A DNA stretch of 64,000 nucleotides from Elusimicrobiota bacterium (GCA_022072025.1 JAJVIP010000017.1:53462-117461), one strand, 5' to 3'. Positions 26,240-53,300 are shown, counted from the first letter of the stretch. Notes: generated from the letters alone by a model not told the origin. Translations and numbers: made by a program.

Positions 26240-26662
26240 TCATCTTTTTGAATAAAGCAGATTAACCAATCGTTCTTGCACCTTCCACATTCTCTCTCGA
26301 TCCTTTCGAGGCCAATCGGTATATCCCAAAAGATGAAGTGTCCCATGAATCACCAATCGAACCAACTCCCGTCCATAAGGTTCACGAAAACGTTTGGCGT
26401 TGTCTTTTGCAACCGGCCCACAAATATAGACATCGCCTCCACCCGATGGATGGGGAAAAGCAATCACATCAGTTTCGCCACTTTCTTTTAGAAATTGGAG
26501 GTTCAGCTCTCGTATTTTTTTCCGACCAACAAAAATAAAGTTGACCTCGCCTTTCACTTTCTTTTTTTCCGACTGAAGAGTTTTCTTAACCAAACGCGGA
26601 AAACGAGCGCGCAACTCTTTTGGGATATGGGCGGGCAGGAGCGCGTGAGAAGAAATGATCAC
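26240..26662 (-). CDS. ybeY: Endoribonuclease YbeY (16S rRNA maturation)
   Basis: HGTLHLLGYTD zinc-binding motif. Confidence 0.85.
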   Translation of the reverse strand: MIISSHALLPAHIPKELRARFPRLVKKTLQSEKKKVKGEVNFIFVGRKKIRELNLQFLKESGETDVIAFPHPSGGGDVYICGPVAKDNAKRFREPYGRELVRLVIHGTLHLLGYTDWPRKDRERMWKVQERLVNLLYSKR

Positions 26663-28179
26663 TGAACGGATATTTTATTATCGTCTGATTCCGGATAGGG
26701 AATCCGCGCGTGGTGAATGGAAAGGAGGGTGTTGGTAAAGCGTTCCGCGACAATCCTCAAGTCGTTTAACGTGAGCGGAGTTTCATCCAACTGCCCATCA
26801 AACAGCTTTTTCTGAATAATTTTATTGACCAAATCCTTGTAGCGCTGGTGATTGGGGTCTTCCAACGTTCGGCTCGAAGCCTCCACCGAATCAGCCAACA
26901 TGACAAGCCCTGCTTCTTTGGTTTGAGGTTTGGGTCCCGGATAACGGTAGGATTCTTCCTCAATTTCCTCTTTGGTGATGTCTTCTTCGCTTTCCTCAAG
27001 TTTAAGCGCTTTGCGGTAGAAATATTCGATCTGGGAGGTACCGTGATGCTGAGGAATAAAAGCAGCGATTTGCGGGTCCAATTTATGCGATTTAGCCAAG
27101 GCCAACCCTTCTTTTACATGGGAGGTAATAATCAGCTTAGACAAAGAAGGACTCACTTGATCGTGGGGGTTTCCAAAGGTTCCTTGATTTTCAATAAAAT
27201 ATTCAGCCTTCACCATTTTCCCAATATCATGAAAATAGGCGCCCACACGGCACAAAAGACCGTTGGCCCCAATTCCAAGGGCCGCGTCTTCCGCCAAAGA
27301 AGCCACGCTGAGTGAATGATGATACGTTCCCGGGGCCTCCATGCTCATTTTTTTTAAAAGCGGGTGATCCACTCCAGCCAACTCCAACAAACTTAAATTG
27401 GAAAGTCGCGAGAATAAACTCTCCAAATAAGGCCGAACTCCCAAACAAAAGATGGCCGAGAAAAACCCGCTCGCAAGCGACCAAGCCATCGATTTGAACG
27501 TTAGAAATCTGCCCCATTCAAGAATAATCCCCAAGGATAAAACCACCAGAGCCTGAACCAATCCCACAAGAAGTCCGGCCCTAGCCACCTGTTGTGAGGA
27601 CCGCGCTTGTGACACCATGGCCACCGCGGTCGCGCTTCCCAAAGCGGCCACCATGGCGGGAGGAAGCGAAAACCCATTTACGATTCCAAACACCAAGGCC
27701 ACCACAAAACCCACAATCATGCCCAGGCGGGCATTGAGCAATAGAGCGGTTAAAATGGGAGCGATGGCAATAGGAGTGGCGTAAAGCGACAACCAATCAA
27801 ACATATACGTCAAGACGGCAATCAGTTTGATCCAAATAAGTGTTATGAAAAATATCACGGCCAAAAGCGCCATCGCATCATCACTTTCAACCAGATCCTT
27901 CTGATCACGATGAAGATAAACGGTAAAAAGTGAAACAACAATCATGATGAATAACGCCAACACCAAGGATTGAGCCAAAGTCATCTGTGTGTTGACAAGA
28001 AGAACCCCATATAAAAGAACGGCGGACGACAAACCAATCACCAAAGGGGGAATGTGGAACTCTTTTTGATGCCAAGTTTCTCTCTGAGCCCGCGGTAGAG
28101 TCTGGTTAATATCTTCGAGACGCTCCAGCCAACTTCGTAAAACACCCTGTAAAAAACCAATCAATGACTGCTTGATCAT
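26659..28179 (-). CDS. 7TM receptor fused to an HD phosphohydrolase domain (PgpH/YqfF-like)
   Basis: Polytopic N-terminus. YHHSLSVASLAEDAA and GAYFHDIGK match the HD motif. Confidence 0.8.
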   Translation of the reverse strand: MIKQSLIGFLQGVLRSWLERLEDINQTLPRAQRETWHQKEFHIPPLVIGLSSAVLLYGVLLVNTQMTLAQSLVLALFIMIVVSLFTVYLHRDQKDLVESDDAMALLAVIFFITLIWIKLIAVLTYMFDWLSLYATPIAIAPILTALLLNARLGMIVGFVVALVFGIVNGFSLPPAMVAALGSATAVAMVSQARSSQQVARAGLLVGLVQALVVLSLGIILEWGRFLTFKSMAWSLASGFFSAIFCLGVRPYLESLFSRLSNLSLLELAGVDHPLLKKMSMEAPGTYHHSLSVASLAEDAALGIGANGLLCRVGAYFHDIGKMVKAEYFIENQGTFGNPHDQVSPSLSKLIITSHVKEGLALAKSHKLDPQIAAFIPQHHGTSQIEYFYRKALKLEESEEDITKEEIEEESYRYPGPKPQTKEAGLVMLADSVEASSRTLEDPNHQRYKDLVNKIIQKKLFDGQLDETPLTLNDLRIVAERFTNTLLSIHHARIPYPESDDNKISVQ

Positions 28180-29162: not shown

Positions 29163-31013
29163 TTACGAAGTTGAACCCACGGGTTTCTCAGTGGAAATGG
29201 GGTTCTGAGGCAAATGGACTTGGATGTTGAGGTCTTTTAGTTGGCGTGGCTCCGGTTGACCCGGCGCGCCACTGACCAAGCAGGTACCCTTGGCGGTTTT
29301 CGGGAATGCAATTACGTCTCGGATGGAATCCTCTCCCACCAAAAGGGCCACCAACCGGTCGAGTCCCAACGCAATTCCACCGTGGGGAGGAGCACCGGAT
29401 TCCAGCGCGTCCAGGAGAAATCCAAATTTGTCTTGCATTTCTTCAGCGGAAAGCCCCAACAAAGAAAGAATGATGCGTTGAATGTGCGCGTTGTGGATAC
29501 GAATGCTACCTCCACCCAACTCAGTGCCATTCAAAACCAAATCATAGGCACGCGCGCGAAAGGTTCCCAAAATAGAATGGGGATTTTGAACTTCCGCGCG
29601 TGCATCCAGTTTGGTCAACGCCTCAATATCTTCAGGGCGAGGTGTGGTGAAGGGATGATGCACACTGACCCATCTTTTGTCCTCATCACTCCATTCAAAA
29701 AGTGGAAAATCAGTGACCCACAACATTTCGGTTTTTTCTTTTAAAGAAGGGGGGGTCTGTTTCACCACGTACTTGTGCCATAAATGAAGCCGGAGGGCTC
29801 CCAAAATGGCCTCGGCATTTTTTGTTTTGTCCGAGACCAAGAAAACAATATCTCCTTTCTTGGCTTGGGCAAGAGAGGGAACAGCGGACTTCTCTTCCGC
29901 TGTTAGAAACTTGGCAATCGGTGATTCTATTTCCCCGCTTTCAAGAACTTTCAACCATGCAAGCCCTTGCGCTCCAACGGATTGTGCAAACTTGGTCAAA
30001 TCGTCGATCTCCTTTCTGGAAAAAGCCGCGCCCCCCGCATGAAGCAACCCTTTGACCGAACCGCCTGACTTTAAATTGTTCTTAATGCGCTCGAAACCTG
30101 TGGCGGAGAAAATGGAGGTGAAATCAAAAATTTCAGGGGAAATTCGGAGATCTGGTTTATCAGATCCAAATCTTCGATGGGCCTCAGCGTAAGAAAGTTT
30201 GGGAAGAGGAAGTTTGATATCAATCCCCAACGCTTGTTTGAAACAGAGCGCTATCAGTTTTTCGATGAGGTGCATGATGTCGGCCTCATCCGCGAACGAC
30301 AATTCCAAATCAACCTGGGTAAATTCAGGTTGGCGATCGGCCCTCAAATCTTCATCTCGAAAACAACGTGCGATTTGATAATAGCGATCAAAACCGCTCA
30401 CCATCAACACCTGTTTAAAAAGTTGAGGCGATTGGGGCAAAGCATAGAAAGCGCCGGGAGTGAGGCGAGAAGGAACCAAAAAGTCGCGGGCCCCTTCTGG
30501 AGTGGAGCGCGTCAACATCGGCGTTTCGATTTCAAGAAATCCCTCTTGGTGAAGGAAATTGCGGATGGTGTGGCTCATGGCGTCTCGAAGTAACATGTTT
30601 CTTTGAAGTGTCGGCCGACGCAAATCCAAATAGCGGTATTTCAAGCGAACATCTTCGGAAGATTCATTGTGTTCAGAAATCTCAAAGGGTGGAGTTTTTG
30701 CCTTATTGAACACCACCAGCGATTCTGCCAAGACTTCGACATTGCCGGTGGCCAAATTTGGATTTCGCGTTCCTTCAGGTCGTTGGCGAACCTTTCCTTT
30801 GACTTGAATGACGAACTCGGAACGCAACTGCTCCGCTTCCCCGAACAAAGCCGCCGGTTCCGGATTGAAAACCACTTGAATAAGGCCAGTGCGGTCTCGT
30901 AGGTCAATGAACAACACGCCGCCATGATCTCGACGGGAATGAACCCACCCCGACAAAGTAACAGACTGCCCCAATTCCTTCTCGGAAACAGCCGCACAAT
31001 AGACAGTTCGCAT
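29163..31013 (-). CDS. aspS: Aspartate--tRNA ligase
   Basis: N-terminal [26 protein letters not shown] anticodon-binding motif, followed by class II catalytic motifs. Confidence 0.9.
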
Positions 31014-31552
31014 CATGAGGGTTTCTTTTCCAAAAGAATTCGAATATCCTTGAGACGGTTTCGAAGGTTCCCGACATTTTCAGAGGTGGAGTTGGCCAGC
31101 AATTGATCCAATTCTTTGACAAGCACCTGGGCTGTTTTCTCATGGGATTCGATACGCAGTTGAATTTGTTTCTTCATCTCTTCAAAAGCTTGTATCACCT
31201 CACCCAATTGATCGGATTCGCGAATACGGGTCATATTCGAGAAATCTCCACTCGCCAAACGTTTGATGCCCTTCTCAAGAGAATAAAGCGGCCCCGCGAT
31301 CGTATGAAAGAAAAAATAATTTTCGATGCCGATGCCCGCCAACAACAAAAAAAGTGTAACGCCAAAACCCATCCTTAAACCGCTCCTCAATTGGATCCAA
31401 GAAAATTCATCAAGAATTCCGCTGGCAACAGCGCGGGATACTTGGGTTTCAAACAAAAGGTAGCAAAACACAAAGGCCACCAAGACCACCACCAAGGTCA
31501 ATAGGAGGTGTTTGAGTTGTAACGCCGGTTTAACAAGGAATTTTTTTCTCAT
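31013..31552 (-). CDS. Small 2TM membrane protein with a HAMP-like domain (paralogue 1 of 3)
   Basis: Two TM helices flank a short loop. A HAMP-like [21 protein letters not shown]...[11 protein letters not shown] segment and a coiled-coil tail follow. Confidence 0.45.
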
Positions 31553-32403
31553 GGTTTAATCAAAATATTATCAATGAGTCGTGTCCGTCCCATGAACACA
31601 GCCGCCGCCAACAAAGCGGGGCGACGTCGAACTTTCATGGGCTCAAGCGTCGCAGGATCAACCATTTCAATGTAATCGATTTTGAATGACGGGTGAACTG
31701 AGAGGAGATGAGAGATTTTTTTGCATATCGCCCGAGGGCTCATGTGTGCGCGGGATGTTAAGAGTTTTCTCCCCTGCTGTAAAGCTTGGAACAATCGCGG
31801 CGCTTGCCGACGTTCTCGGGGAGATAAGAACACATTACGACTGGAACGGGCCAAACCGTCAGCCTCACGAAGGGTCGGGCACCGTATGATTTTGACGTCC
31901 CAGTTGAGATCTTCGGTCATCTGTTCGATCATGCGGAGCTGTTGAAAATCTTTCATTCCAAAATAGGCCTTATGGGGACGGACAATATTGAAAAGTTTTG
32001 CCACAACTGTGGCCACGCCCACAAAGTGTTGTGGCCCTCTGGAGCGGGGAGCCCCGCACAAAGTATTGGTTAATTTCTTCACTCTCACCTCAGTCACATG
32101 ATTGGAACCGTACATAACATCCTGAGAGGGAGCAAAAAGCACGTCCACCCCCACAGAATTCAAAAGCCGCACATCCGCTTTAAAGGGACGAGGGTAGCGT
32201 TTAAAATCTTCCCTGGGACCAAATTGCGTGGGGTTCACGAATATCGAAACCACCGTAAATTTGTTTTCACGTTTGGATCGTTTGATCAATGACAAATGCG
32301 CTTCATGCAGCGCCCCCATCGTTGGCACAAAACCAATGGATGCTTTAATAGGGAGACTGGAACGCCACCTTTGGAAGGAGGAAGGGGAATACAAGATTTT
32401 CAT
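31549..32403 (-). CDS. panC: Pantoate--beta-alanine ligase
   Basis: VPTMGALHEAHLSL signature. Start set at MKILY. Confidence 0.85.
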   Translation of the reverse strand: MKILYSPSSFQRWRSSLPIKASIGFVPTMGALHEAHLSLIKRSKRENKFTVVSIFVNPTQFGPREDFKRYPRPFKADVRLLNSVGVDVLFAPSQDVMYGSNHVTEVRVKKLTNTLCGAPRSRGPQHFVGVATVVAKLFNIVRPHKAYFGMKDFQQLRMIEQMTEDLNWDVKIIRCPTLREADGLARSSRNVFLSPRERRQAPRLFQALQQGRKLLTSRAHMSPRAICKKISHLLSVHPSFKIDYIEMVDPATLEPMKVRRRPALLAAAVFMGRTRLIDNILIKP

Positions 32404-32416
32404 ATTGGATAACTTT

Positions 32417-33217
32417 TTAATGATAGCTGTGCCTTGCACTCGGGAAACGGCGCGCGCGGACATCCGCTGAAAATCGTTTAAGAGCGGCCTTCATAAGGGG
32501 GCGAACCTGGGCATAGGCGGCCACAAATTTGGGACTTGGACCTTCTGAAAATCCAAGGACATCGTCCAACACGAGAATTTGACCATCACATCCCGCTCCG
32601 GCACCGATGCCAATCGTTGGAATTTTTAGGGCCTTCGTGACGCGGTTGGCCAAACTTTCTGGAACTCCTTCTAAGACAAGCGCAAACACACCTGTATTTT
32701 CAAGCAACTTGGCTTCCTTTAGTAATTGCGCCGCGGCTTTCATCGTCCGCCCCTGAACCCGATAGCCCCCCTGTTGATGAAAAGATTGAGGAGTCAGTCC
32801 CAAATGTCCCATGACCGGCACATTCGCGTTCAGAATAGCTCGAACGGATACAATCACGCGCTCTCCTCCTTCCACTTTGACCGCCTGAGCGCCGGCTTCT
32901 TTAACAAAGCGGCCGGCCGCTTGGGCCGCCATCCATGGCGCATATTCGTAGGATTGAAAGGGCATATCCGCAACAAGAAGGGATTGGCGAATTCCTCGGC
33001 TCGCCGCTTTGGTGTGATGGATCATTTCATCCAAAGTCACCGGAAGCGTGTTGGGATATCCAAGCCGTGTATTCGCGAGCGAGTCTCCGACCAAGGCCAC
33101 ATCGACTCCTATTTCATCAATCAAGCGAGCCGAAGCCGCGTCATAACAGGTCAACGCAACTATAGGGCTTTTGGTTTTCTTTTTAGATTGCAGGGTAAGA
33201 ATTGTGTTCCGTTCCAC
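32417..33217 (-). CDS. panB: 3-methyl-2-oxobutanoate hydroxymethyltransferase
   Basis: LTCYDAASARL...VGDSLANT motif. Confidence 0.85.
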   Translation of the reverse strand: MERNTILTLQSKKKTKSPIVALTCYDAASARLIDEIGVDVALVGDSLANTRLGYPNTLPVTLDEMIHHTKAASRGIRQSLLVADMPFQSYEYAPWMAAQAAGRFVKEAGAQAVKVEGGERVIVSVRAILNANVPVMGHLGLTPQSFHQQGGYRVQGRTMKAAAQLLKEAKLLENTGVFALVLEGVPESLANRVTKALKIPTIGIGAGAGCDGQILVLDDVLGFSEGPSPKFVAAYAQVRPLMKAALKRFSADVRARRFPSARHSYH

Positions 33218-33714
33218 AGAGCAAAGATCGTAACTCTTTGACCCAGAGGCGTCAATTTTCTCAACAATGTCCTATTTTGGAGACCCAAAACTGGATGAAC
33301 GAATCGGGGGGCCACATCACAAAAAGGAACCAATACAAATCGCCTTAGGTGATAACGCGGGTGAGGTAATAATAAGGCTCTACTACGAACCACCCGCTGA
33401 CCCACGGCCAACAGGTCAAGATCAATCGAACGAGGCCCCCATTTTGTTCGCCGCACACGCCCCAGCTTTCTCTCAATATCAAGAAGTTTCAACATCAACT
33501 GTTGAGGAGCGAATGAAGTTTGAACCATCAACACTCCATTCAAATAGTCAGCCTGAGGGGGCCCTCCCACCGCTTGTGTTACATAAAGAGATGAAACACC
33601 CAACAATTTTACTCCAACCAAATGACGAATGAAATGCACAGCGTTGGATAGAAATGAAACGGAGTTTCCCTGGTTCGATCCCATGGCAATATAGGCTTTC
33701 ACGGCCAGAATCAT
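33160..33714 (-). CDS. folK: 2-amino-4-hydroxy-6-hydroxymethyldihydropteridine pyrophosphokinase (HPPK)
   Basis: AYIAMGSNQGN...GPRSIDLDLL signature. Start trimmed to MILAV. Confidence 0.8.
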   Translation of the reverse strand: MILAVKAYIAMGSNQGNSVSFLSNAVHFIRHLVGVKLLGVSSLYVTQAVGGPPQADYLNGVLMVQTSFAPQQLMLKLLDIERKLGRVRRTKWGPRSIDLDLLAVGQRVVRSRALLLPHPRYHLRRFVLVPFCDVAPRFVHPVLGLQNRTLLRKLTPLGQRVTIFALWNGTQFLPCNLKRKPKAL

Positions 33715-33766
33715 AGCAATCGACGGAATCCAACAGCGTATCCGTCGGCAAAATAAAAAATATTTC

Positions 33767-33795
33767 TTGACTACAAATTTCCTCTCATGTACTCT
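33767..33795 (+). promoter_or_regulatory. Sigma70-like promoter TTGACT-17-TACTCT for the small repeat-protein gene
   Basis: Read directly. A strong Shine-Dalgarno AGGAGGA lies 7 nt before the ATG at 33847. Confidence 0.4.
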
Positions 33796-33846
33796 CACCG
33801 TCGCAACAATGAATCATATCGACGAAAAAATTCAGGAGGACCTAAC

Positions 33847-34068
33847 ATGGCTCAAAAAGTAGCGAAAGCTGGCGTAAAGAGAGAAGATGGGTTTCTATAT
33901 TTCATCGACAAACAAGGCGACATTTCTCGTGCGAAAATGGCGCGCGGCGGAAAGAAAGGCGGCAAGCCCCAGAAAGTAACCAAGCTCGGACTCAAAAAAG
34001 AAAAAGGGTTCCTTTATTTCCTCGATAAGCAAGGCGACGTTTCTCGCGCAAAAATGGTGAGAAGGTAA
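33847..34068 (+). CDS. Small basic protein (73 aa) built from two tandem 30-aa repeats (K-x-E-x-G-F-L-Y-F-x-D-K-Q-G-D-x-S-R-A-K-M)
   Basis: Strong RBS, its own promoter, an internal perfect duplication, and a rho-independent terminator immediately downstream. Confidence 0.5.
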   Translation: MAQKVAKAGVKREDGFLYFIDKQGDISRAKMARGGKKGGKPQKVTKLGLKKEKGFLYFLDKQGDVSRAKMVRR

Positions 34069-34095
34069 GTACTCCTCAAAATTTCGCAATAAAAA

Positions 34096-34128
34096 GCCCC
34101 CGCCAAGAACTTTGGCGGGGGCTTTTTT
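34096..34128. terminator. Bidirectional rho-independent terminator (GCCCCCGCCAA-GAAC-TTGGCGGGGGC flanked by an A-run and a T-run)
   Basis: Perfect 11-bp stem with a 4-nt loop, followed by TTTTTT. Sits between convergent genes. Confidence 0.8.
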
Positions 34129-34149
34129 ATGTCCAGAAATGGGCGCTGA

Positions 34150-34761
34150 TTAAGAAATTTTTATTTGATTGGATTGTGACTTGAGCTCGGCAACGGCCTG
34201 ATCGAGTTTATCGGCTTGGGCAATATTTCCTGAAGATCGTAATTCCTTAGAAATCCCTTCGACTTTATTCAAGGTACCCTCTCGCGCCTCTCGTTCTTTT
34301 TTTATTTTACTTCGGAGCCCCGCCAAACCTTGATTGAATTCATCGGCGAGATCCTGCATTTGATCATGTTTTCTCAAACGAACAAAAATAGACAAATTCC
34401 CTTCCTTCATTTCTTTGAATATCTTTTCAAAACGGTAAATGGGTCCCGCTAAAAAATGAGTCAAAAATAGAACAAGCCCAAATGTGAGTGCCATAATCAA
34501 AAATCCCGTTTGTCCAATAATGGAGGTAAGAGATTGAAGTTGAAGCACAGCATCCTCACCAGTGACAAATCCCGCCTCAATCATTTTATTCACCGCAACA
34601 CGGCTTTCCAGCCAAATAATCAGTGTCGACACCGAAAGGATGGCCAGCAATATAAAACTCAACTTAAATTGAAAGTGATGCTTAATAATATATTGCCCAA
34701 AAAAGCGGTTGACTCTTTTGGGCTGGCTGGATGAACTCACGCTGAGTTGTTCATTTGACAT
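34150..34761 (-). CDS. Small 2TM membrane protein with a HAMP-like domain (paralogue 2 of 3)
   Basis: FGQYIIKHHFQFK...AGPIYRFEKIFKEMKEGNLSIFVRLRKHDQM...KKEREA. Same architecture as the 34975 gene. Confidence 0.45.
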   Translation of the reverse strand: MSNEQLSVSSSSQPKRVNRFFGQYIIKHHFQFKLSFILLAILSVSTLIIWLESRVAVNKMIEAGFVTGEDAVLQLQSLTSIIGQTGFLIMALTFGLVLFLTHFLAGPIYRFEKIFKEMKEGNLSIFVRLRKHDQMQDLADEFNQGLAGLRSKIKKEREAREGTLNKVEGISKELRSSGNIAQADKLDQAVAELKSQSNQIKIS

Positions 34762-34974
34762 ATTGATTTCTCCAGATCATTTGATTGAGGTTGATTGACA
34801 AAATACCCCTTGTCAAGACTTTGATGACTATGGGAGGAGAAAAGTGAATAAAGCATTCTACCTTTCGAGAAAATGCCACTCTATCAAGCTCTACGGAAAT
34901 TTCACTGCAAAATCAAATAGTCGATTCACAAAAACACTTGATATTCAGATCTTAATATTCAGGCAGTAGTGGTT

Positions 34975-35580
34975 TTAAATATTGATTTGAGGAAGGTGGT
35001 CTTTGGATTTCCGGAACAATTTATCAAGTTGGTTGGCTTGCTCTGAAAATCCAAGATCTCGCCATTCCTTTACGAGACTGTTTGCTTTTATCCACAAAAC
35101 GTCATTGGCTTCACGTTCTTTTTTTAATTTGTTTCGAATGCTGGAAAGAGCCTGATTCAGGAGATCGGCGCTTTCCTTGAACTCATCATGTCCTCGCAAC
35201 CGAACATGGCCTCCTAAATTCCCATCGCGCATCTGTTCAAATGTCTTCTCAAAGCGAAAGATAGGACCTGCCACAAAATGAGAAAGAAAAAGAGTTAATG
35301 CAAAAATAACCACCGCTGCCAAAAAACCGGTTTTTCCTGTAATGCCCACAAGCAATTCAAGTTGTTCCTTTACGTCTCCTTGGACGGCGTTGGTATCAAT
35401 CAAGCGGCCTACAATCCAGTGACATTCGAGCCAGACAATACCGAGGAAAACCGCCATGACGCCGGACAGAACCAACGCACATTTGAATTGAAACCCATGC
35501 TTGATAATGTATTGCCCAAAAATCCGATGGGTTTTGCTCGGTTGAATAACGTGACTGTGTAATGTTCCTTCTTTTAACAT
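34975..35580 (-). CDS. Small 2TM membrane protein with a HAMP-like domain (paralogue 3 of 3)
   Basis: FGQYIIKHGFQFK...AGPIFRFEKTFEQMRDGNLGGHVRLRGHDEF...KKEREA. Collinear with paralogue 2. Confidence 0.45.
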   Translation of the reverse strand: MLKEGTLHSHVIQPSKTHRIFGQYIIKHGFQFKCALVLSGVMAVFLGIVWLECHWIVGRLIDTNAVQGDVKEQLELLVGITGKTGFLAAVVIFALTLFLSHFVAGPIFRFEKTFEQMRDGNLGGHVRLRGHDEFKESADLLNQALSSIRNKLKKEREANDVLWIKANSLVKEWRDLGFSEQANQLDKLFRKSKDHLPQINI

Positions 35581-35738
35581 TCACACCTCCTTTGAAGTCC
35601 GTTTGAATCTACATCCGATAGCCTATAAATTCCATTGTTTTTGAAGGAACTTTCACCACATCAAATGTGCAAAACGTCACGTCCCAAATATACAAGAATA
35701 TTCTGGAAAGCTATGAAATTCACATATATATTCATTTC

Positions 35739-38297
35739 ATGCGCCAAGTCTCGGAAATTAATCAGTCAACATCTGGAACGACATTAGTCGAACTGATGGT
35801 AGCCGTTGCGATACTTGGCATCGTTAGCATTGGACTCGTGGGTGTATTTGGCAACCTCGGCAAAGCAACACAAACTTCAAAAAACCGAACCCTTGCCGCA
35901 AATCTCGCTCAAGAGAAGATGCAAATCTTAAAAGAGCAAATTTTCGACAAAGTCCTTGTTACCACCTCCACGGCCTATCTGTACGATTTTGACCCTCCCA
36001 TTCCCTATGATACAGGCTATTATCCGCCGGAGCCAATTTTGGAGGGTGGCATACGATTCACGCGCTATACGTTCGTTGAGGTGACAGACGAAAACAGCGG
36101 GGGCTTGGTTTATTTAGGAGCTGTACCCGATTCAGGAATGAAGGCCATTACGGTGACCGCTGTTTGGACCCAGGGAACAGAAATTAAAAAGATCCAAATC
36201 AACAACATTCTTGGGAACATCAATATGAGAATGAACAATGCCATCGTGAGTGGCCAGGTCACCAATTCAGCCACTTCAACTGGGATCCAAGGCGCACTAA
36301 TAACCATGGCAGAAAACGTCGGTTATCAGGATTTCAGCGATGCCAGCGGTAACTATCTCATTAACTTGCTTCCAGGAACCTATACGATGAGCGTGACTGC
36401 AAGTGGCTATTTTCCGTCCTATTTGACGGTTTCCGTTCCCCCTACGTCCCTCACTCAACCTATCTCTTTGGTCGCCATGGGTTCGGGAACAGTACAAGGA
36501 ACAGCCTGGATCAACAACCATTTGGTTATAAGCCAGGTTGTTGGGAGTTCAATCAGTGCAACGGGCTTTAATCAAGAATGGGTGGAGGTTTTCAACCCAA
36601 CGACTTGGACATGGACCGCTTCGGGTGTAGGCCTTAAATTTCAGCGATCAACCGCCCTCGATCTGTCGCCGGTGAATATTTCAATAAATTATGTTTCTCC
36701 TTCCATCGCGCCTGGTGGTTTCTATCTCTTTGCGAACACAACTACGATTACCGCTGCCGGAACCGTACTGAACGCGGACGCCACATGGAATCTGACCGCA
36801 GGAACAAATGACACTGCCTTCAGCCCGCGATTTAACTCATCGGATCCGAACATTATCACGACATACGAAGATACGAATACTTGGGGAAGGGGGAGTGTTC
36901 AACTGTACAACGTTTCCGATGGAACACCTCTTGACACAGTCGGATGGACAGGCGATGGGTCCCAGTCGCCTCCACTTTATGAGGGAAACGCTATAAGTCA
37001 GTTTGAAGGTTTGAACGACAACGAACAATTTTATCGTTACTCTAGTACCAGCGGTTACAACCCGGCTTACGGACCCGCTTATGATTCGGGAGATAACAAT
37101 ACTGACTTGAGTATACTGAGCTCTGTTGGGTGGGTTCCAAAGAACACGGCCAGTGCGACTGTTCCTGTGGTTGCGGGTGTCCCCGCCATCGGTGCGTTTG
37201 TAACGGCGACGGATGGCCTTTCGCAGACGGTGAATGCAAGCTCATTCGGCTCTCCTCCCTGCGCCCAATTTCAGCTGACTTCGGTAGCCACAGGCACCTG
37301 GACTGTGTATATCGCAAGCTCCAGTCTTTATATGGAGATATCGTCAGTTACTGTTTCGCCAAATACAACCACATTGGTACCCAATGCCAACACTTCGCCT
37401 TCATGGCCATCAAGCGGGTACAGCTCAGTTATTTTGTCATCGGTCGCGACTCAGGGATACGTTTCGGGATGGGTGAAAAACGCTTTAGGAGTCGCGATCA
37501 GTCCAGCCATCACCGTCAGCGCGGGTTCTCTCACGGCTCAAGCCAATACTTCGAATGGGACGTATATATTGCCGGTATCCCCAGGTACTTATGACATTAT
37601 GGCGAATGTTCTTAACCCTAATTCTCTTTATGTGTGGCAGGCATCGCAATCCGTTGTGGTTAACCTCGGAGAGGTCACCTCAAATGTTAATTTCAACTTA
37701 ACTCAGGGCGGAAAGGTCAGAGGATTTTGTACGCGCGATGGGACCAATGCTCTACCTGGGATTGTGTTTACGGCCGTTGATGCTGGTGGGGCCACGGTGG
37801 ATCAAGAAGTATCGGGAACCGATGGCATCTATATTTTGCAGAACTTGTCCACCGGCACTTACACCATTTCTCCAAGTTTAGGATCAGGAGAAATCGCGAG
37901 TCCCACCAATACATCTGTGACGGTAATTGCTGGAACCACAGTCAATGCGGCCACATTCACGATTTCCGGCGCGTTCGGCAGCATTGCAGGCAGTGTTACG
38001 GAGTCCGGCCAGGGCATAAAGACGGGCGTTATCATTGTGTGTTCGACAATGACTTTGTCGAGCGGCCCGCCACAGCTCAGCACCAGCACATTAACCTCCG
38101 CCTCCGTTTACGTGACCAACAGTTACGAAGACGGGACCTATATCGTCGACGTTCGTGGAAGCACAACGACGACTTATGTCCTTTACGCTTATTACCCAAA
38201 ATTCAGCGGTTCTGCTCCTGTGATTAGCTCAAGGACCGTGACCAACGTGTCTGTCACGCCGGGTTACCGCACATCAGGAGTTAACTTTGCTTTTTAA
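35739..38297 (+). CDS. Large pilin-like surface protein (about 850 aa): type IV prepilin N-terminus fused to a lamin-tail-like domain and CarbopepD-regulatory-like Ig domains
   Basis: Prepilin cleavage/methylation motif SG|TTLVELMVAVAILGIV with E at +5. LTD-like NQEWVEVFNPT...APGGFYLFAN. Three or more SGQVTN...GxYxxxxxPGTY units. Confidence 0.65.
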   Translation: MRQVSEINQSTSGTTLVELMVAVAILGIVSIGLVGVFGNLGKATQTSKNRTLAANLAQEKMQILKEQIFDKVLVTTSTAYLYDFDPPIPYDTGYYPPEPILEGGIRFTRYTFVEVTDENSGGLVYLGAVPDSGMKAITVTAVWTQGTEIKKIQINNILGNINMRMNNAIVSGQVTNSATSTGIQGALITMAENVGYQDFSDASGNYLINLLPGTYTMSVTASGYFPSYLTVSVPPTSLTQPISLVAMGSGTVQGTAWINNHLVISQVVGSSISATGFNQEWVEVFNPTTWTWTASGVGLKFQRSTALDLSPVNISINYVSPSIAPGGFYLFANTTTITAAGTVLNADATWNLTAGTNDTAFSPRFNSSDPNIITTYEDTNTWGRGSVQLYNVSDGTPLDTVGWTGDGSQSPPLYEGNAISQFEGLNDNEQFYRYSSTSGYNPAYGPAYDSGDNNTDLSILSSVGWVPKNTASATVPVVAGVPAIGAFVTATDGLSQTVNASSFGSPPCAQFQLTSVATGTWTVYIASSSLYMEISSVTVSPNTTTLVPNANTSPSWPSSGYSSVILSSVATQGYVSGWVKNALGVAISPAITVSAGSLTAQANTSNGTYILPVSPGTYDIMANVLNPNSLYVWQASQSVVVNLGEVTSNVNFNLTQGGKVRGFCTRDGTNALPGIVFTAVDAGGATVDQEVSGTDGIYILQNLSTGTYTISPSLGSGEIASPTNTSVTVIAGTTVNAATFTISGAFGSIAGSVTESGQGIKTGVIIVCSTMTLSSGPPQLSTSTLTSASVYVTNSYEDGTYIVDVRGSTTTTYVLYAYYPKFSGSAPVISSRTVTNVSVTPGYRTSGVNFAF

Positions 38298-38790
38298 ATC
38301 CAACAAAGGACAAAAGGGCACAACTCTTATCGAATTGATGATTGTCGTATCGATATTGGGAGTTATCGTCATGCTAGCCCCCAATTTATACAAGCAGGTC
38401 CGGCGTTTCTTTTTTTTGAATAGCGCGAAAGTTGAACTTCAGCGGGAAGCGCGTTCTGTGATGGAGCTGGTTACACGGCGATTGCGGCAAGCGAGTTCGA
38501 CAACGTTGGTGATGGATCAAGCAAGCGGTCAACCCTATTATTCAAGGATTAGGTTTACCGACATCGACTCAAATACGAACGTTTATTATCAGAGTGGGAA
38601 GAATCTCGTAATGAGCGTCAATGGTTCGACAAGAACCCTAACATCCAATTTGCGATATCTCGCTTTTGCATTGCCACGCTCGGATGATATGAACATTGTT
38701 TCAGTGGCTTTGACACTTGAAAAATCAACATACGAAGGCCAAACCAAAGCGCTCCATATGGCCTCGGAAAAGGTTAGGTTAATCAATTAA
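38287..38790 (+). CDS. Prepilin-type minor pilin/pseudopilin
   Basis: KG|TTLIELMIVVSILGVIV N-terminal methylation motif. 167 aa. Overlaps the upstream gene by 11 nt. Confidence 0.65.
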   Translation: MLFKSNKGQKGTTLIELMIVVSILGVIVMLAPNLYKQVRRFFFLNSAKVELQREARSVMELVTRRLRQASSTTLVMDQASGQPYYSRIRFTDIDSNTNVYYQSGKNLVMSVNGSTRTLTSNLRYLAFALPRSDDMNIVSVALTLEKSTYEGQTKALHMASEKVRLIN

Positions 38791-40196
38791 TGAAAAACAA
38801 ATCGAAAGGATTCGCGTTACCAGCCGTCTTGGCGATCATGCTCGTGTGCATGGTTTTATTGCCAGCTCTTGTTATGTGGATGCAACAGGACATGAAGATG
38901 GCAGTGAAAACCCAGAAGACCAGTCTTGCTTTTAATCTGGCAGAAGCAGCGGTTGATCGGGGCATGTGGAAACTAAAAAGCTCGAGCTCGACATTTGCGC
39001 AGGCAGCCGCTGGAACGGTTATTACCGGTTATAACTTTGACACAACCTATGTTGATGTCGCGGGCGGCACTTACCGGATTAAATTTTCGTCCGGCCCGGC
39101 CGCGCGGCAAGTCACTATTTGGGGTGAGGGACGTGACGCGGCAAACAATGCGACTCGTTCGGTCCAAATGGTGGTTCAAAATCAGACTATTTACAGTGCT
39201 TTGATGGCGGGAGGAAACACCACATGGGCCAAAGGACTTATTATTTTTTGGGGGCCGATTATCTCGCAAGGCAACATCGCAATCCAAGATGATATTGTTG
39301 GAGGAATCTACTACCCTCAAAAGTACGCAAAAGGCACGGTGATCGGAACTGCTACCAATCCAAGAGATACAAATGGACCGACCCCACCGAACACAGACAA
39401 CACAGAGTGGTGGTCTCAATATGAGGGTGTGCCCGATGTTCCTGTATTGGATTTCGCCTCATTACGGTCCTCAGCGGCGGCAACAGGCACGTTAAACGTT
39501 TATGGATGCCGATCTACCCAAGGAGGGGCTGGCACCAACAACAGCGCGACTGCGTGGGACACTCGCGCATCATGTACCGCCTCCGGAGCGCATGCCACCC
39601 ATTTTGGCAATCCATGGTGCCATCCGAAATCAGCCCGAAATCAACCCAACAACAGCTATGTATGGTATTGGGACGGAGACGTCACTTTAAGTGGTGGAAG
39701 CAGCGCCAATCAAAGTTGCGGACTCCGTGGCATGGTGATAGTCCGAGGGAATTTAACCATCAACACCCCTGGCGAATATAAGTACACGGGCCCGGTTCCG
39801 ACAAACGCATGGCAACAACACAAGAAATTCACAAAGACTACTTATGATACATCGTCATCAAGTCAATACCCTGCTGATACTGGTCTTAACTCCTCCGCGT
39901 CCACTTTTTCTTTTGGCACGACTGGGTTCGGCGTTCCAGGATTGGGAACTGGTCCTTACCAATGTACGGTTGGTATCAGGGGTTTTACGTATGTAGGCGG
40001 AAACTTAAGCATCCTCAATTATATGGACTTCAATGGAGCCGTGTGGGTCAATGGAACGGTTTCGTCCAGTGGCGGCACCTTATCAACTTCTTGTGGAATA
40101 TTTTACGATGAAACATTAGATGTCCCGGCCCTGAACGTAATTCTCGTCCGTTCGTCGTGGAATGAAGTCACTCCGAGCTCTTCCCCATGGTTATAA
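38790..40196 (+). CDS. PilX-like minor pilin (N-terminal PilX domain) with a large variable C-terminal region
   Basis: The KGFALPAVLAIMLVCMVLL hydrophobic N-terminus resembles PilX_N. Start overlaps the upstream stop. Confidence 0.5.
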   Translation: MKNKSKGFALPAVLAIMLVCMVLLPALVMWMQQDMKMAVKTQKTSLAFNLAEAAVDRGMWKLKSSSSTFAQAAAGTVITGYNFDTTYVDVAGGTYRIKFSSGPAARQVTIWGEGRDAANNATRSVQMVVQNQTIYSALMAGGNTTWAKGLIIFWGPIISQGNIAIQDDIVGGIYYPQKYAKGTVIGTATNPRDTNGPTPPNTDNTEWWSQYEGVPDVPVLDFASLRSSAAATGTLNVYGCRSTQGGAGTNNSATAWDTRASCTASGAHATHFGNPWCHPKSARNQPNNSYVWYWDGDVTLSGGSSANQSCGLRGMVIVRGNLTINTPGEYKYTGPVPTNAWQQHKKFTKTTYDTSSSSQYPADTGLNSSASTFSFGTTGFGVPGLGTGPYQCTVGIRGFTYVGGNLSILNYMDFNGAVWVNGTVSSSGGTLSTSCGIFYDETLDVPALNVILVRSSWNEVTPSSSPWL

Positions 40197-47342: not shown

Positions 47343-47463
47343 TCAACTGGATTGTTTTCCTCTAGGATTCAGATAAAGTACTTGCGCTGAATCTCAAGTC
47401 CACTTAAGTTTGAGACGTATGCACCTCCGTCACAAACCTAACCCGCCGTTCTTGGGAAAAGTG

Positions 47464-49143
47464 ATGGCCAGTTTGGCTGTTATGACCATTTCTTTTTCTC
47501 TTCTCTCCCCATCTCAAGCCGCCCCGGTTAAAAAAAACAAAACATCTGATGCCGCTAAAGTGTCCGAGAAAACAGAAGCAGGTGAGACAAAAGTTCCGGG
47601 GAAAATTGAATCCGTTACCCGCAAAGTCGAGGTCTTTAGAGCAGGATCAAACGGATGGAAAAAAGCCCAAAGCAGCACACCTCTTTCTCCGGCCGACAAA
47701 ATAAAAACCGGCACCCGATCTGTGGCCCGAGTCAAATTGGCTGATGGGACAAAAATTTTACTGCTCCAAAATTCCCAAGCGGAAGTGGAGAAACTTTCCA
47801 GCGTTCAAAAAAGCATCAAACTCCTCAAAGGACGTATTCGCGCCATCGTTTCAAAGATGAAAGGCGGTAACAATTTCCAGATAAACACCCCCGTGGGCGT
47901 GGCCAGTGTTCGCGGGACTGATTTCGAAGTAAGCGTCGAAGGAGATGAAAAATCACCTCAAATGCAGGTCTCGGTGAATGAAGGGCAAGTGGGGGTTTCT
48001 AAATTGGGGGATATGTCCCAGGAAGTGGTGTTGAACGCAGGGGAAAGCATTAAATTTGGGTTTGAAGGAGATATGGGAACCCCCATCCGATCAGGTTCTC
48101 TCCCTGGGGACCGAGACACGGTGAGAACGGAGATTCAAATCGCCAAATCCAAAGAGGCGATGCTGGCCATGGCCGCCGAAGAATCCCGCCAAGCGGATTA
48201 CCAAACCGGAAAATCATTGATGGATGTGGACGGACAACGGGTTCGAGTTGAGGAATACATTATGCGTCCCCGCGCCGATCAATTTAAATTGGTGGTTCTC
48301 AATGAGCGCCCTGAACGATTTGACTACTTCACTTACAAAGGAACCTTCAACACCGACCTCCCTGAAGATCTCTCCATTGCGCTTGGACAAGTGGCTGGAA
48401 AAGTGGGAGCCACCGCTCCTGATTATTATTTGAGGGAATATGAAACCGTCGCCTCCAACACAGTGGATACCGTTTCCGATTCCGCTTCGGGCGGACATTT
48501 GGTGAAGATAGATTTCGATGGAACCAATTACACCCTGACCGATAACGAAGATGCCACCAACACGCGGGTCGTTGAAGCGGCCGCCTTACAGCCTGACGGT
48601 TCGTATAAAATTTACAACCCCATTCGCGATTCATTTTCTCTTGTTTCCGCCGCCAATAAAACAGAGGCCTTAAAAGTTGGGGTGGTCGATGGCGGAAACT
48701 ATCGCAATCTCACGGGGGGCGACACCTACTGGAAAACCCGGTTTAACACGTACGCAATGTTCGTGAACAGCACGGGAAAAACCGCCTATGAAAAGAAAGG
48801 CAGTGTCACCAACACGCTCGCCGTCGATTTGGACGCGAACTTCTCCAATGCCCCCATCACCTCCATAACGGAATTTCCCGATGGAACCAGTCAACTCCAC
48901 AATAAATTGAGCCTCTTCTACGCGGACGGATCAAAATTGGTCTATGACAATTACATCATCGATGACGAAGGGAATATGGTTCCTGCGTCCACTTTCAACG
49001 GGATATCAACAAGCGCTGAATATAAAAACATTTTGGACACTTTAAACTACCAACAAAACATCACTGCCACCGAAATGGGATCTCGGTCCATTCGATTGGT
49101 CATCGATCCGCGAATTGGAACCAAATCGGGGTTGATCCAATAA
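47464..49143 (+). CDS. Secreted FecR-domain protein
   Basis: Signal peptide MASLAVMTISFSLLSPSQA. FecR-like block ADGTKILLL...GVASVRGTDFEVSV. Confidence 0.5.
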   Translation: MASLAVMTISFSLLSPSQAAPVKKNKTSDAAKVSEKTEAGETKVPGKIESVTRKVEVFRAGSNGWKKAQSSTPLSPADKIKTGTRSVARVKLADGTKILLLQNSQAEVEKLSSVQKSIKLLKGRIRAIVSKMKGGNNFQINTPVGVASVRGTDFEVSVEGDEKSPQMQVSVNEGQVGVSKLGDMSQEVVLNAGESIKFGFEGDMGTPIRSGSLPGDRDTVRTEIQIAKSKEAMLAMAAEESRQADYQTGKSLMDVDGQRVRVEEYIMRPRADQFKLVVLNERPERFDYFTYKGTFNTDLPEDLSIALGQVAGKVGATAPDYYLREYETVASNTVDTVSDSASGGHLVKIDFDGTNYTLTDNEDATNTRVVEAAALQPDGSYKIYNPIRDSFSLVSAANKTEALKVGVVDGGNYRNLTGGDTYWKTRFNTYAMFVNSTGKTAYEKKGSVTNTLAVDLDANFSNAPITSITEFPDGTSQLHNKLSLFYADGSKLVYDNYIIDDEGNMVPASTFNGISTSAEYKNILDTLNYQQNITATEMGSRSIRLVIDPRIGTKSGLIQ

Positions 49144-49161: not shown

Positions 49162-50376
49162 ATGAAATCTCGTGTTCTCTTGTTTATCTTAGCTTCAATG
49201 CTGAGCCATATATCCATGGCTGGCCCTCAATACATTCCAGTCATCAACGGTCTTTTCACAACGGGACAATGGTATTTTGAAGGCGATAAAAGTGAGTTGG
49301 GTGGAAATGCCGCGATCACGTTCGTTCCTGCCCTCAAGTACTCCGATAAATTCACACTGATTCCTACTGTACAAAGCTATTACCATGGCACACGCACCGC
49401 GGAAGAGTTGGCGGGGGGAAATACTTTATTTCAAGATACCTGGGACAATGGCATCGGAGTCAAAGCTGTCCATTCATTGAATGAAAAATGGAACATCAAG
49501 GAAAATATAGGCGCTCGTTTTAAATGGTTCCGTGAGACCACCGATGAACGATGGACCCATGGACTCTATGATTACCGAATTCTTAATGCGGGCTTGGAAG
49601 CGGAACGAAAGTGGGGGAAAAAAACCAGCATCGCGGCGGGGTATGATATTTCTCTTCTCCAATTTCCCAACTATGTTTCCTTGGAGTCCAGTCAAAGCGA
49701 GGATCGTTCCAGAGAATATGCGGGTGAAAATGTTCTCGATACCCGCAGCCATCTTTTTTCCCTTCGGATCAAGGCCCCGCTTTTTTGGGGACTCTCCACC
49801 TCACTGAACTCATTTTTAACCCCTCGATATTACACCGATCAACATGTGGTTCAATTAACAGGTCTTTTGTCAGCCACAACACGAGATGACCTTTTTTCCA
49901 GCAACACCCTCTCGATCGATCGGGTATTTACCCTCTTTCGAAAAACGAAACTCATCTCGACCGTTATCGTTGGACACAACAGCCTCGATTCCAATCAAAA
50001 CCATTATGACGCCAAGCAAACTTACTTCGCGGCCAACTATTACGACTACGATCAAAATATCGCTGGTCTCCAAATGAACTACGCCTTTGGCAGCAAAATG
50101 CAAAGTCCCATGCTGATCAACTTGGGATACAACTATTCTCATCGCAACTACCGTTCTAGAACCATCCAAGACGCGGATGGAGCCTATTTGAATGAAAAAC
50201 TCTATTTGATCGAACAAGCCATTAATCTTGGTTTTAGTTATCCGCTTGCAAAAAATTTCAGAGTCAAAATGTCCACCACTTTTGCCCAAAGCAAATCCAA
50301 CAACAATTTTGAATCACTCTATCGATACAACTATCACAACTCGGAATATCAATTTGGATTCACTTATGATTATTAA
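49162..50376 (+). CDS. Outer-membrane beta-barrel protein of unknown function
   Basis: Signal peptide. Tyr/Gly-rich alternating strands. C-terminal aromatic ...FGFTYDY. Good RBS GAGGGG. Confidence 0.45.
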   Translation: MKSRVLLFILASMLSHISMAGPQYIPVINGLFTTGQWYFEGDKSELGGNAAITFVPALKYSDKFTLIPTVQSYYHGTRTAEELAGGNTLFQDTWDNGIGVKAVHSLNEKWNIKENIGARFKWFRETTDERWTHGLYDYRILNAGLEAERKWGKKTSIAAGYDISLLQFPNYVSLESSQSEDRSREYAGENVLDTRSHLFSLRIKAPLFWGLSTSLNSFLTPRYYTDQHVVQLTGLLSATTRDDLFSSNTLSIDRVFTLFRKTKLISTVIVGHNSLDSNQNHYDAKQTYFAANYYDYDQNIAGLQMNYAFGSKMQSPMLINLGYNYSHRNYRSRTIQDADGAYLNEKLYLIEQAINLGFSYPLAKNFRVKMSTTFAQSKSNNNFESLYRYNYHNSEYQFGFTYDY

Positions 50377-53300
50377 TAAACGGAGTTTAACCGGTTTAAT
50401 TTTAAATTTATCCCTACTCGCTGTGATGGCTCATGCAACTCCCTCTGACATTGCCGATTTAACAGCCACGACGGGTTCAAACCCCGGCACAGTGACTCTC
50501 AATTGGTCCGCCCCCAACGGCGGAGCCACTCGGTACATCATCAAATACGCTCCAAGTTCCTCTTTAATTTCAACGGAGTCCCAATTTTTATCCGCCTCTC
50601 ACATTGAGGCGCCCCCCATTAATGCACAAGCGCCAACGCCAGCCAGTGGGGGTTCACCCGAAACGCTGACGATATCAGGATTACAGAACGGGGTCGTGTA
50701 TTCATTCTCTATTAAATCGGAGGACAGCAGTTTGATTCGCTCCAATCTCTCCAATGGGGCCACCGCCATGGCCGCTGTTCCTTGCGCTGCGAACGCCAAT
50801 GACGGAAAAGGAAGCGGCGCCATTCTTCCAGCTTCTATCCCCAAAGGACAAGTCGTTCTAACCACCGTCACTTTCACGGTGGACCCGGCCGGAATCGGGA
50901 CCGGAGGAAAAATCTCTCTCCAAGTCCCAGATTTTTTCCCTTTTTTGAGCACCGCCACTTCGAACCAAGAATCCTCTGGATATATTTCTTACACCCACAC
51001 GGGAGGAGCCAACTTGGTTGTTTCCTCTCTCAGTGAACAAGTCATCACATTAAAAGTCGACTCGGGAAGTATGAGCAGCGGTGACCTTGTGAAATTCTTC
51101 ATCTATGCTCACATCTGTTATACCGGGAACAATTCATCCCTTCAATTTCGATTGGCCTCTCAACAAGGAAGTTGCGGAATCCTCAGAGAAATTGCCAGTC
51201 AACCCGTTGTCTCAATTACAAATGGGGGCCCCGCCTTTATTGCGTTTGACCCTTATGAGATTGTGGCGAAGGTCGATGCCATCACCTCTTTCAAAGTCGT
51301 TTCTTTTGATGGATGTGGATATCCAGTCAACTTGTCTCAAACAACAGCCTTTACATTGGAAACCTATCGATATGATTCGAATTCCTCCAATTATATTGTG
51401 GATAGTAACGCATCTCTTTCACTCTCTTCAGATATGTCCTCTTCAAACACCAACATTGGATCTGACATAACCAGCGGGCAATCGGAGAGAACCGCTTACT
51501 ATCGGATCACAACGGCCTCGGCCAAACCCAACTATATTGTATTGACCTACGATGATTTAACTCCACCTCACAACTCCATCTCCTATATCGCTTCAATTGT
51601 TCCACTCACTGTTGGAATTGCGTCAAGTTCAGTCGATAAAGGAACTCTCAATCAAACTCAAAAAACAGTCACCTTTGATCCAGGTAAAAATGAACGTGTT
51701 TATTTCAACTTTTCACTTCCCGAAAATCTTTCCTGGAAAATCATGATATCGAGCAATGGTTTTTCCTCTTTCACCTATATTATTTATGGGAATGGAAAAA
51801 ATGTTCGCACCTCCTGGGATGGGTATGCGGATCCGTCCCCGGGGGAACCTCCGCAAATTGCTCCAGCAGGAACCTATTCCATACGGATACAAATTGGGCC
51901 GGACATAAAAGATGAAACCTGTTCCGTGACTCTCCAATCAGCCGGCATTCAAGGGACGTTGGTAAAAGCGGGGACAGCAACCGCATTGGAAAACGTCGAT
52001 ATCGAATTTTTTGGACCCACGCCCCGCTACACCCGCTCTCGGACGAATGGAACCTTTGAAACGGGAGGGCTCAACTCAGGATCTTATAAGGTTCGGTTCT
52101 TTAAACCTGGTTATATTTTCAAGGAGGTTAATGCGACCGTAACTTCCGGCAACTCAACCAATTTGGGAACCGTTGAACTGACCGAAGCGGCTATTTTAAG
52201 GCTTTATTTCAGCCGTTCAGCTTCTGGCAGTCTGCCGGATATCAATGGATCAGTGCGTGCCTACAACTCTGATTATTCCAAACAATCCTTTGGGTCCGTT
52301 CGGTTTAGATCGGGAAGCACCACTTCAGATGCCGGCGATGATTGGAACTCGACTCCCACTCCTTATACCGACTTATATCTCGAACAAAATGTGGCCTATT
52401 CAGTCCAGGTTGAAATTCCCGGGTTTGCTCCCCTTACCTTCAGTAACACATTAACCTCCGCGGGTGTTACCACCAGCACTCCAACGTTGACGACAAAACC
52501 CACAATAGAGGGGACCGTAACCATTCCAGCGGGGGGGAATGCCCAAGGTCTTTGGATCTCTGTTGAAGCCGCAATTGATGCAAACGGAGATTTAAGTCCG
52601 GACTCTACGGATCCCTCCAACCGTTTATACGGTGGCAGCTATCTTCCACCCAATGAAACCACGGGAATTTACCGTGTTTTCGGATCGACCAATGCCAAAT
52701 ATGTGCTAACGGCATTTGCGCCGGGCTTCGTCCAGAGAAAAATCAATGTCACCGTCAATGGAAGCGATGTCAACAATGCCAATTTCCCCATTTTCAGCGA
52801 GGGGGGAAATATCTCAGGAACAATCACAGTGAATGGAGACTCCACCATTCTTGATGGCGATGACAACGATGGAAAATTTGAAATCCCCATCAATGCCTAC
52901 TCACCTTCAACCGGACGAGGTAGTTTCGCACAGATTGAGCTAAATGAAAATGCGTCCTCCACCAGCGGCGCATACCAATTAAAAGGACTGGAGGATGGAA
53001 TTTATAACGTCTCGGTTTACCAGTCGGGGTTTGGGTTGGTCCCCCCTGGACCCAAAAGCGTAACGGTATCCGGAGGAACCGGGACACTCAATCTCACTTT
53101 GGAACGCTTCAGCGGACAATTCACTGGGACCCTGACCTTGCCGACAGGCCAATCCAATTATGGCACTGTCGAAGTCGATGCCCTGTCGTTTAATCACTTT
53201 GGACAAGGAAGTCTGACTGGCGTCATTTCAGGGAACACCTATACCATCAGCAATCTCGGAACAGATTTTTACACCATTCGCGCTCGCTACCCCACGACAG

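Follow-up and report, generated by a model that had tools for sequence, protein, structure and literature searches.

The HAMP domain is one of the commonest signal-relay modules of bacteria and, to our knowledge, its mechanism has been studied almost solely in proteins in which it is joined to a kinase or a chemoreceptor. Here we analyse three genes, A, B and C, within a stretch of 64,000 nucleotides (nt) from an Elusimicrobiota bacterium (GCA_022072025.1, JAJVIP010000017.1:53462-117461), hereafter called the window. They almost certainly encode paralogous membrane proteins with two transmembrane (TM) helices and a HAMP domain followed by a short helical tail instead of an output domain. All three are members of a large uncharacterised protein family and not a local curiosity.

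Among the described systems, the transducer HtrII of Natronomonas pharaonis resembles these proteins in its two TM helices, its minimal outer loop and the placement of a HAMP immediately behind TM2. A separate partner, the sensory rhodopsin, supplies HtrII with its input sideways, inside the membrane. Unlike A, B and C, its chain goes on to include a second HAMP and a complete methyl-accepting domain which couples to CheA and CheW, whereas the proteins studied here end about 50 residues past the HAMP in a short hairpin. Af1503 of Archaeoglobus fulgidus, reportedly the first receptor to have the structure of its HAMP determined, by Hulko et al. in 2006, is said to be a transmembrane protein with a cytoplasmic part that is essentially a canonical HAMP only, with no recognisable output domain. 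It reportedly carries a sizeable domain outside the cytoplasm, and its chain stops just behind the HAMP. Compared with what is reported of Af1503, A, B and C have almost no outer domain, and they possess a conserved N-terminal motif and a C-terminal hairpin.

Kinases of the BceS/LiaS type and PilS have very short outer loops, and their signal is thought to arrive via TM contacts with a partner membrane protein; PilS senses the unassembled pilin PilA. In Caulobacter, PleC senses unassembled pilin PilA as well (PMC7196804). Such pilin sensing parallels the position of B and C beside genes for pilin-like proteins. All of these kinases hold their DHp and catalytic domains in the same chain, in contrast to the family described here, in which one clade is accompanied by a separate soluble kinase.

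Results

Anatomy of the three proteins

The three open reading frames (ORFs) lie on the minus strand at 31013..31552 (A, 179 amino acids (aa)), 34150..34761 (B, 203 aa) and 34975..35580 (C, 201 aa), in agreement with the earlier note on this DNA. Hydropathy analysis according to Kyte and Doolittle reveals two hydrophobic helices in each protein. In A, an N-terminal motif precedes TM1 (about residues 16-34), an outer loop of about 23 aa leads to TM2 (about 58-80), and the HAMP (residues 82-131, nt 31160-31309) is followed by a helical tail. B has the N-terminal motif at residues 17-33, TM1 at 34-52, the loop at 53-86, TM2 at 87-105 and the HAMP at about 104-155 (nt 34297-34452), with a stalk helix extending to residue 176 and a hairpin helix at 180-195. 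C shares the layout of B, with TM1 at 34-52, TM2 at 86-104 and the HAMP at about 98-150 (nt 35131-35289); the outer loops of B and C measure about 33-34 aa. The motifs FGQYIIKH(H/G)FQFK, AGPI(Y/F)RFEK and KKEREA, to which the earlier note had drawn attention, are all found in the sequences. Pairwise alignment, as proposed there, demonstrates homology for all three pairs: identity is highest for B against C at 46% (E 2e-58), falling to 27% for A against B (E 3e-12) and to 23% for A against C (E 4e-8).

Concerning the HAMP domain itself, A scores 27.8 bits against Pfam PF00672 and exceeds the gathering score of 25 bits, C scores 16.0 bits and remains below it, and B gives no match. The NCBIfam matches of A, B and C span the TM2-HAMP stretch of WalK and MtrB; for B and C these have E values of about 1e-6, and the NCBIfam kinase scores are far under the cut-offs. 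In an alignment of 53 diverse family members, Pfam HAMP is matched by 46 at E<=0.01 (best E 4.2e-13). HAMP membership is direct for A and for the family, and is predicted for B and C by transitive homology.

The structure of B was modelled as an AlphaFold2 monomer on the alignment of 53 sequences, with a predicted local distance difference test score (pLDDT) of 91.1. The model contains a short helix (19-24), a long helix comprising TM1 and an outer extension (28-62) and a helix that runs from the outer part through TM2 into HAMP helix 1 (69-119); the short outer loop is helical. After a connector (120-135), HAMP helix 2 and the stalk form one helix (136-176), and beyond a turn the last helix (180-195) folds back. 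The HAMP is thereby placed straight after the last TM helix, which ends at about residue 105 in B, in a helix-connector-helix arrangement. When the model was compared with the PDB by Foldseek, the only matches were weak ones to the TM2-HAMP region of chemoreceptors (best E 0.011), and no other fold emerged. In a profile search of PDB sequences, HtrII was the top match (E 9.4e-7), followed by Tsr, and the HtrII chain 5jjn_B aligns across TM1, loop, TM2 and HAMP (profile positions 26-149).

Output domains were searched for in several ways. Apart from HAMP, the Pfam scan of A, B and C at E<=10 detected no domain. MCPsignal (PF00015) was matched neither by A, B and C at E<=10 nor by the 53 relatives, the chain stopping about 50 aa past the HAMP. 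HisKA, HATPase_c and GGDEF gave no Pfam match in A, B and C at E<=10, HisKA remnants were absent from the 53 relatives in Pfam, and the post-HAMP helices of B contain no histidine. Likewise, LemA (PF04011) and PspA/IM30 (PF04012) were matched neither by A, B and C at E<=10 nor in the family-wide scan. A, B and C are judged to carry a genuine HAMP domain and are not chemoreceptors, kinases or proteins of the LemA/PspA type; the alternative considered in the earlier note, a failing HAMP assignment together with a fit to LemA or a phage-shock family, is not what the Pfam, NCBIfam and family scans returned. Alignments, hydropathy and domain scans all bear out its description of three paralogous, output-less proteins with two TM helices, a HAMP and a helical tail, and there is hardly any doubt left in our minds about this identity and anatomy.

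A large family of short HAMP proteins

A word-index search found 14 close relatives, all of 193-206 aa, which have in common SRxFGQYIIKxRFQFK before TM1, SHF(I/V)AGPIYRFEK at the TM2/HAMP junction and a C-terminus of the PPQIQI type. A profile search covering 1.84 billion representative proteins yielded 19,380 matches at E<=1e-3, of which 3,629 reached E<=1e-10 and 36 reached E<=1e-30. The best 150 matches (E<=3e-23), for which lengths are known, are nearly all short, mostly 180-230 aa, and aligned almost over their full length; the weaker matches surely include some longer HAMP proteins. In a second word-index search, the best 120 matches all measured 144-207 aa. Relatives are hosted by Omnitrophota, Riflebacteria and unclassified bacteria. 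Their database names are 'HAMP domain-containing protein' or 'methyl-accepting chemotaxis protein', the latter being wrong because the MCPsignal domain is absent. Among the 53 members, no recurring domain family other than HAMP was detected, and the family scan found no Pfam or NCBIfam model that covers the full-length protein. Literature searches yielded nothing specific on output-less HAMP proteins and no description of this family.

The annotation of some relatives as chemotaxis proteins might suggest that A, B and C derive from chemoreceptor or kinase genes that were truncated to remnants or mis-called as fragments. This explanation is refuted by the conservation of length: hundreds of the relatives listed are of similar size (about 190-205 aa) and end in conserved C-termini such as PPQIQI or KYKL. 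Moreover, the downstream genes begin a few bases from the stop codon, and remnants of MCPsignal or HisKA were not detected. We give it practically no credence.

The alignment of 53 sequences has five invariant columns, R19 in the N-terminal motif and G106, P107, R130 and D133, as well as five near-invariant ones, Q31, S101, H102, A105 and G121. The N-terminal motif occupies the cytoplasmic juxtamembrane position and reads R-x11-Q in the family and SRxFGQYIIKxxFQFK in B and C. The HAMP signature of the family is SHxxAGP ... G(D/N)L ... LRxxD(E/Q), which includes the proline opening helix 1, the connector glycine (G-D/N-L) and the D(E/Q) opening helix 2. The pattern is that of the canonical HAMP signature combined with a family-own N-terminal motif and a histidine at the cytoplasmic end of TM2. 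Within the B/C subfamily, conservation amounts to 74% in the N-terminal motif, 65% in TM2 and 62% in the HAMP, and is lowest in the stalk (32%). A value of 65% for TM2 is unusual for a plain membrane anchor.

This conservation bears on the possibility that the proteins are modulators or decoys, which form mixed dimers with full-length HAMP kinases or chemoreceptors, or pack against their sides, and tune them without a pathway of their own. HAMP is established as an obligate dimerisation module, several paralogues occur per genome, and the sequences resemble the TM2-HAMP part of many kinases, all of which speaks for such modulators. Against them stand the highly conserved N-terminal motif and TM2 that are the family's own. 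In addition, the gene partners described below are clade-specific and none of them is a HAMP kinase with two TM helices, and no full-length relative with the same TM module was found in the window or among the best 150 matches. We regard a modulator or decoy role as distinctly improbable.

Paralogy and the age of the B/C duplication

The earlier note had described two of the three genes as clearly recent duplicates. The data contradict this: B and C are only 46% identical, and a neighbour-joining tree joins C to a gene of L001, a related locus from another metagenome (51% identity), and not to B (45-46%). The related genome L013 has a single family copy at the B/C position. Since C is closer to the L001 gene than to B and L013 carries one copy, the B/C duplication is judged to be old, and B and C are old tandem paralogues.

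A is a distinct old paralogue fixed in a folK-panBC-A-aspS operon. The co-directional genes panC, panB and folK (31549..33798, minus strand; panC at 31549-32463) lie upstream of A, and aspS (29163..31016, minus strand) lies directly downstream; the ends of A overlap panC and aspS by 4 nt each. The housekeeping block panC-panB-folK separates A from B and C. A profile search of the window found no family members besides these three. What looks like a three-gene cluster consists of two positions, each conserved separately, that happen to adjoin in this lineage: that of A inside the folK-panBC-aspS operon and that of B and C beside a cluster of genes for pilin-like surface proteins; L013 is arranged alike.

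Gene context of the family

We gathered 62 related loci, called their genes and labelled the neighbours by profile and BLAST comparison; for L004-L014 and L027-L060, the neighbours were compared only with a small reference set. The classes of gene context coincide with the clades of the neighbour-joining tree.

B and C belong to clade IIa, whose members stand beside giant pilin-like clusters with N_methyl and CarboxypepD_reg domains (window, L001/L033, L013, L036). In the window this cluster extends on the plus strand from 35667 to 40196, or to 40564 if a gene for a 125-aa protein is included, and C is divergent from it; we propose its products as the partner set of B and C. The first protein (876 aa) has an N-terminal methylation motif and a CarboxypepD_reg domain. 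The other members are a 167-aa N_methyl protein and two proteins without a family, of 468 aa and 125 aa. Among the window genes scanned downstream of the cluster, no type IV pilus motor genes were found. L001 carries duplicated versions of the pilin-like cluster.

In clade IIb (L015/L016/L007, L010, L036) the HAMP gene is the last, co-directional gene of a giant pilin-like cluster. A distant lineage also pairs the two kinds of gene: in L062 (611-2530) a prepilin gene comes after a tandem pair of family genes. In L061 (1605-2792) the second gene of the pair and the prepilin gene form a single reading frame, joined precisely at the G|FTLIEL cleavage site and encoding a product of 395 aa. Topology permits such a fusion, since HAMP tail and prepilin leader both lie in the cytoplasm, and it may be an artefact of assembly or sequencing. 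Pilin adjacency recurs in three lineages, one of them including the fusion.

Clade III comprises gene A and its counterparts in L012, L013 and L014, with the order panC-HAMP-aspS and 4-nt overlaps. Clade I was found in at least eight loci (L002/3, L004-6, L027-29 and L032, at least six distinct contigs) and has the order HATPase_c protein (468 aa), REC-like/TM/beta-propeller-like protein (390 aa), PilZ, HAMP, panD and REC. Its 468-aa HATPase_c protein is soluble and possesses long coiled coils and a divergent, H-box-like IAHRVRTAL. The clade I operon of L002 (2650-7143) resembles a kinase system split into separate polypeptides. Genes of pantothenate synthesis flank two of the HAMP clades, as panC-HAMP-aspS and as HAMP-panD (panD at 6291-6680 of L002).

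In clade IV, which is Omnitrophota-like, a TPR/PDZ protein with a signal peptide precedes the HAMP protein in at least ten contigs forming two subgroups (L017 5012-6609 and L055 4919-6351; also L019, L043, L046, L048-L051 and L059). The ends of the PDZ and HAMP genes overlap or nearly abut. Between the two subgroups the PDZ proteins are merely 25-28% identical, and the outer loop of the clade IV HAMP proteins has a conserved VYPQGRL motif. The C-terminal ends PPQIQI and KYKL were considered as PDZ ligands in Omnitrophota. This idea was rejected on topology: its signal peptide places the PDZ protein in the periplasm, whereas the HAMP tail lies on the cytoplasmic side.

These contexts bear on both sides of a further explanation, according to which the proteins are non-signalling structural components of the envelope, helical bundles that organise or stabilise pilin-like fibres or PDZ complexes, with the HAMP as a dimerisation scaffold. 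It is consistent with the location of A and of the PDZ-linked clade in tight housekeeping operons with overlapping stop and start codons, and with the lack of an output domain or an obvious cytoplasmic partner near A, B and C. However, the residues of a switching HAMP (the proline, the connector glycine and LRxxD(E/Q)) are invariant or nearly so in 53 diverse members, no LemA, PspA or other scaffold family was matched at E<=10, and one clade lies inside a kinase/REC/PilZ signalling operon. We consider a purely structural role rather improbable.

The 73-aa basic repeat protein

The earlier note had linked the HAMP genes to a small basic protein encoded between folK and B, suggesting a partner-switch or membrane-sensing module. 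This tandem-repeat gene (33847..34068, plus strand) is not part of the HAMP system. Its product of 73 aa contains 21 lysine or arginine residues and two 29-aa repeats, identical at 20 of 29 positions, and the gene is preceded at a distance of 7 nt by AGGAGG, a strong ribosome-binding site. The gene and B are convergent, and a strong bidirectional intrinsic terminator, read directly from the sequence, stands between them at 34092..34129 (AAAAAGCCCCCGCCAA...TTGGCGGGGGCTTTTTT). An AlphaFold2 model (pLDDT 92.6) predicts a six-stranded all-beta protein in which the two repeats are beta-repeats. Neither sequence nor fold gave a significant match in the PDB, Pfam returned no family and only a sub-threshold match to DotY, phage genomes gave no match, and literature searches revealed nothing specific.

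Relatives of the 73-aa protein fill more than 3,400 clusters and are 65-83% identical to it; they come from Omnitrophota, Elusimicrobiota and also DPANN archaea, and none is annotated. In Omnitrophota, the gene lies after folK-panC-aspartate dehydrogenase and before uvrA, the surrounding 5 kb being free of HAMP genes, and in a nanoarchaeal contig it stands amid unrelated genes. Judging by co-occurrence, it tracks folK and panC in two bacterial phyla, and not the HAMP genes. Between the window and L013 the 73-aa protein is 100% identical, as against 60-84% for the flanking proteins and 41-53% for the HAMP genes.

A partner-switch module made up of the three HAMP proteins and the 73-aa protein could appeal to the physical closeness of the genes in the window and in L013, and to L015/L007, where the 73-aa gene is found 5.7 kb upstream of a HAMP gene. 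The separate transcription, the linkage to folK and panC in two phyla and the occurrence in DPANN archaea leave the partner-switch idea unsupported, and the unequal conservation of the proteins likewise speaks against a functional link. Furthermore, no STAS, anti-sigma, RsbW-like or PP2C genes were found among the window neighbours scanned or among the genes annotated or scanned in the related loci. Partner switching is largely refuted and in our view very improbable; the other half of the suggestion, membrane sensing, is a reasonable description of the anatomy. The 73-aa protein is not a partner of the HAMP genes and is possibly an undescribed nucleic-acid-binding protein, as predicted from its charge and conservation only.

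Other features of the window

A gene for a seven-transmembrane receptor/HD hydrolase (26659-28179, minus strand) is located downstream of phoH and oriented like A and aspS; the order of phoH and this gene is kept in L012 and L013. On the plus strand, an ORF of 2,106 aa occupies 50228-56548 and is preceded by genes for a FecR-domain protein and a 404-aa protein (47410-49143). An NCBI 'hypothetical protein' of an Elusimicrobia metagenome-assembled genome matches protein B at 100% identity; despite this identical protein, an exact look-up of B in the assembly index gave no match.

Discussion

The anatomy of A, B and C invites a comparison with transducers that depend on a separate partner. We propose that the proteins would form parallel dimers of the HAMP type. 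An envelope protein encoded by a separate gene would supply the input laterally, by way of TM2, TM1 and the short loop, in a manner similar to HtrII and to the intramembrane-sensing kinases; such membrane input is proposed because the proteins themselves possess hardly any outer domain. The HAMP switch would then reposition the C-terminal hairpin, and output would consist solely in binding or releasing a cytoplasmic partner. For B and C, the input partners would be the adjacent pilin-like proteins, whose hydrophobic N-terminal helices would sit in the inner membrane before assembly. In the sister clade, the cytoplasmic partner is plausibly the co-encoded soluble histidine-kinase-like protein, PilZ or both. 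In favour of this partner-coupled mechanism, the recurring neighbours are all membrane or periplasmic proteins, clade I lies within the kinase/REC/PilZ operon, the N-terminal motif, TM2 and HAMP are the best conserved parts of the B/C subfamily, and pilin adjacency is seen in three lineages, one of them with the fusion. We hold the mechanism taken by itself as tentative, its chances falling somewhat short of even. For the whole explanation, comprising family identity, anatomy and the partner-coupled transducer mechanism, we consider the case to be evenly balanced.

Several points weigh against the partner-coupled mechanism. The score of the HtrII match comes mainly from the HAMP segment, and the outer loop and TM1, through which input would partly pass, are conserved only moderately (39-42%). 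The clades of gene context derive from a neighbour-joining tree without support values, the pilin-adjacent examples belong mostly to one phylum, and some of the context signal may reflect inherited gene order and not function. A search of the window for the clade I genes encoding the kinase, the REC-propeller protein and PilZ found none of them, and a cytoplasmic output partner of A, B and C was not identified within it. Finally, A stands among housekeeping genes, a position that a constitutive role would explain no less well than a sensory one.

A broader version of the partner-coupled reading, which we think unlikely, would see in the family widespread enzyme-less transducers that read a dedicated envelope partner in the membrane and signal through a HAMP-controlled hairpin docking a soluble kinase or PilZ. 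For B, C and two other lineages, the envelope partner would be the pool of pilin-like proteins in the inner membrane, and for another clade the periplasmic TPR/PDZ protein. On this broader version, the HAMP-prepilin fusion at the prepilin peptidase site would be a clue to direct physical partnership.

If the family of A, B and C consisted of plain scaffolds, the finding would be an ordinary one. If the partner-coupled mechanism is true, it would reveal a natural 'split' system, in which input, relay and output reside on separate polypeptides and can be tested singly. It would also offer a first handle on the regulation of pilin-like surface proteins in Elusimicrobiota and Omnitrophota.

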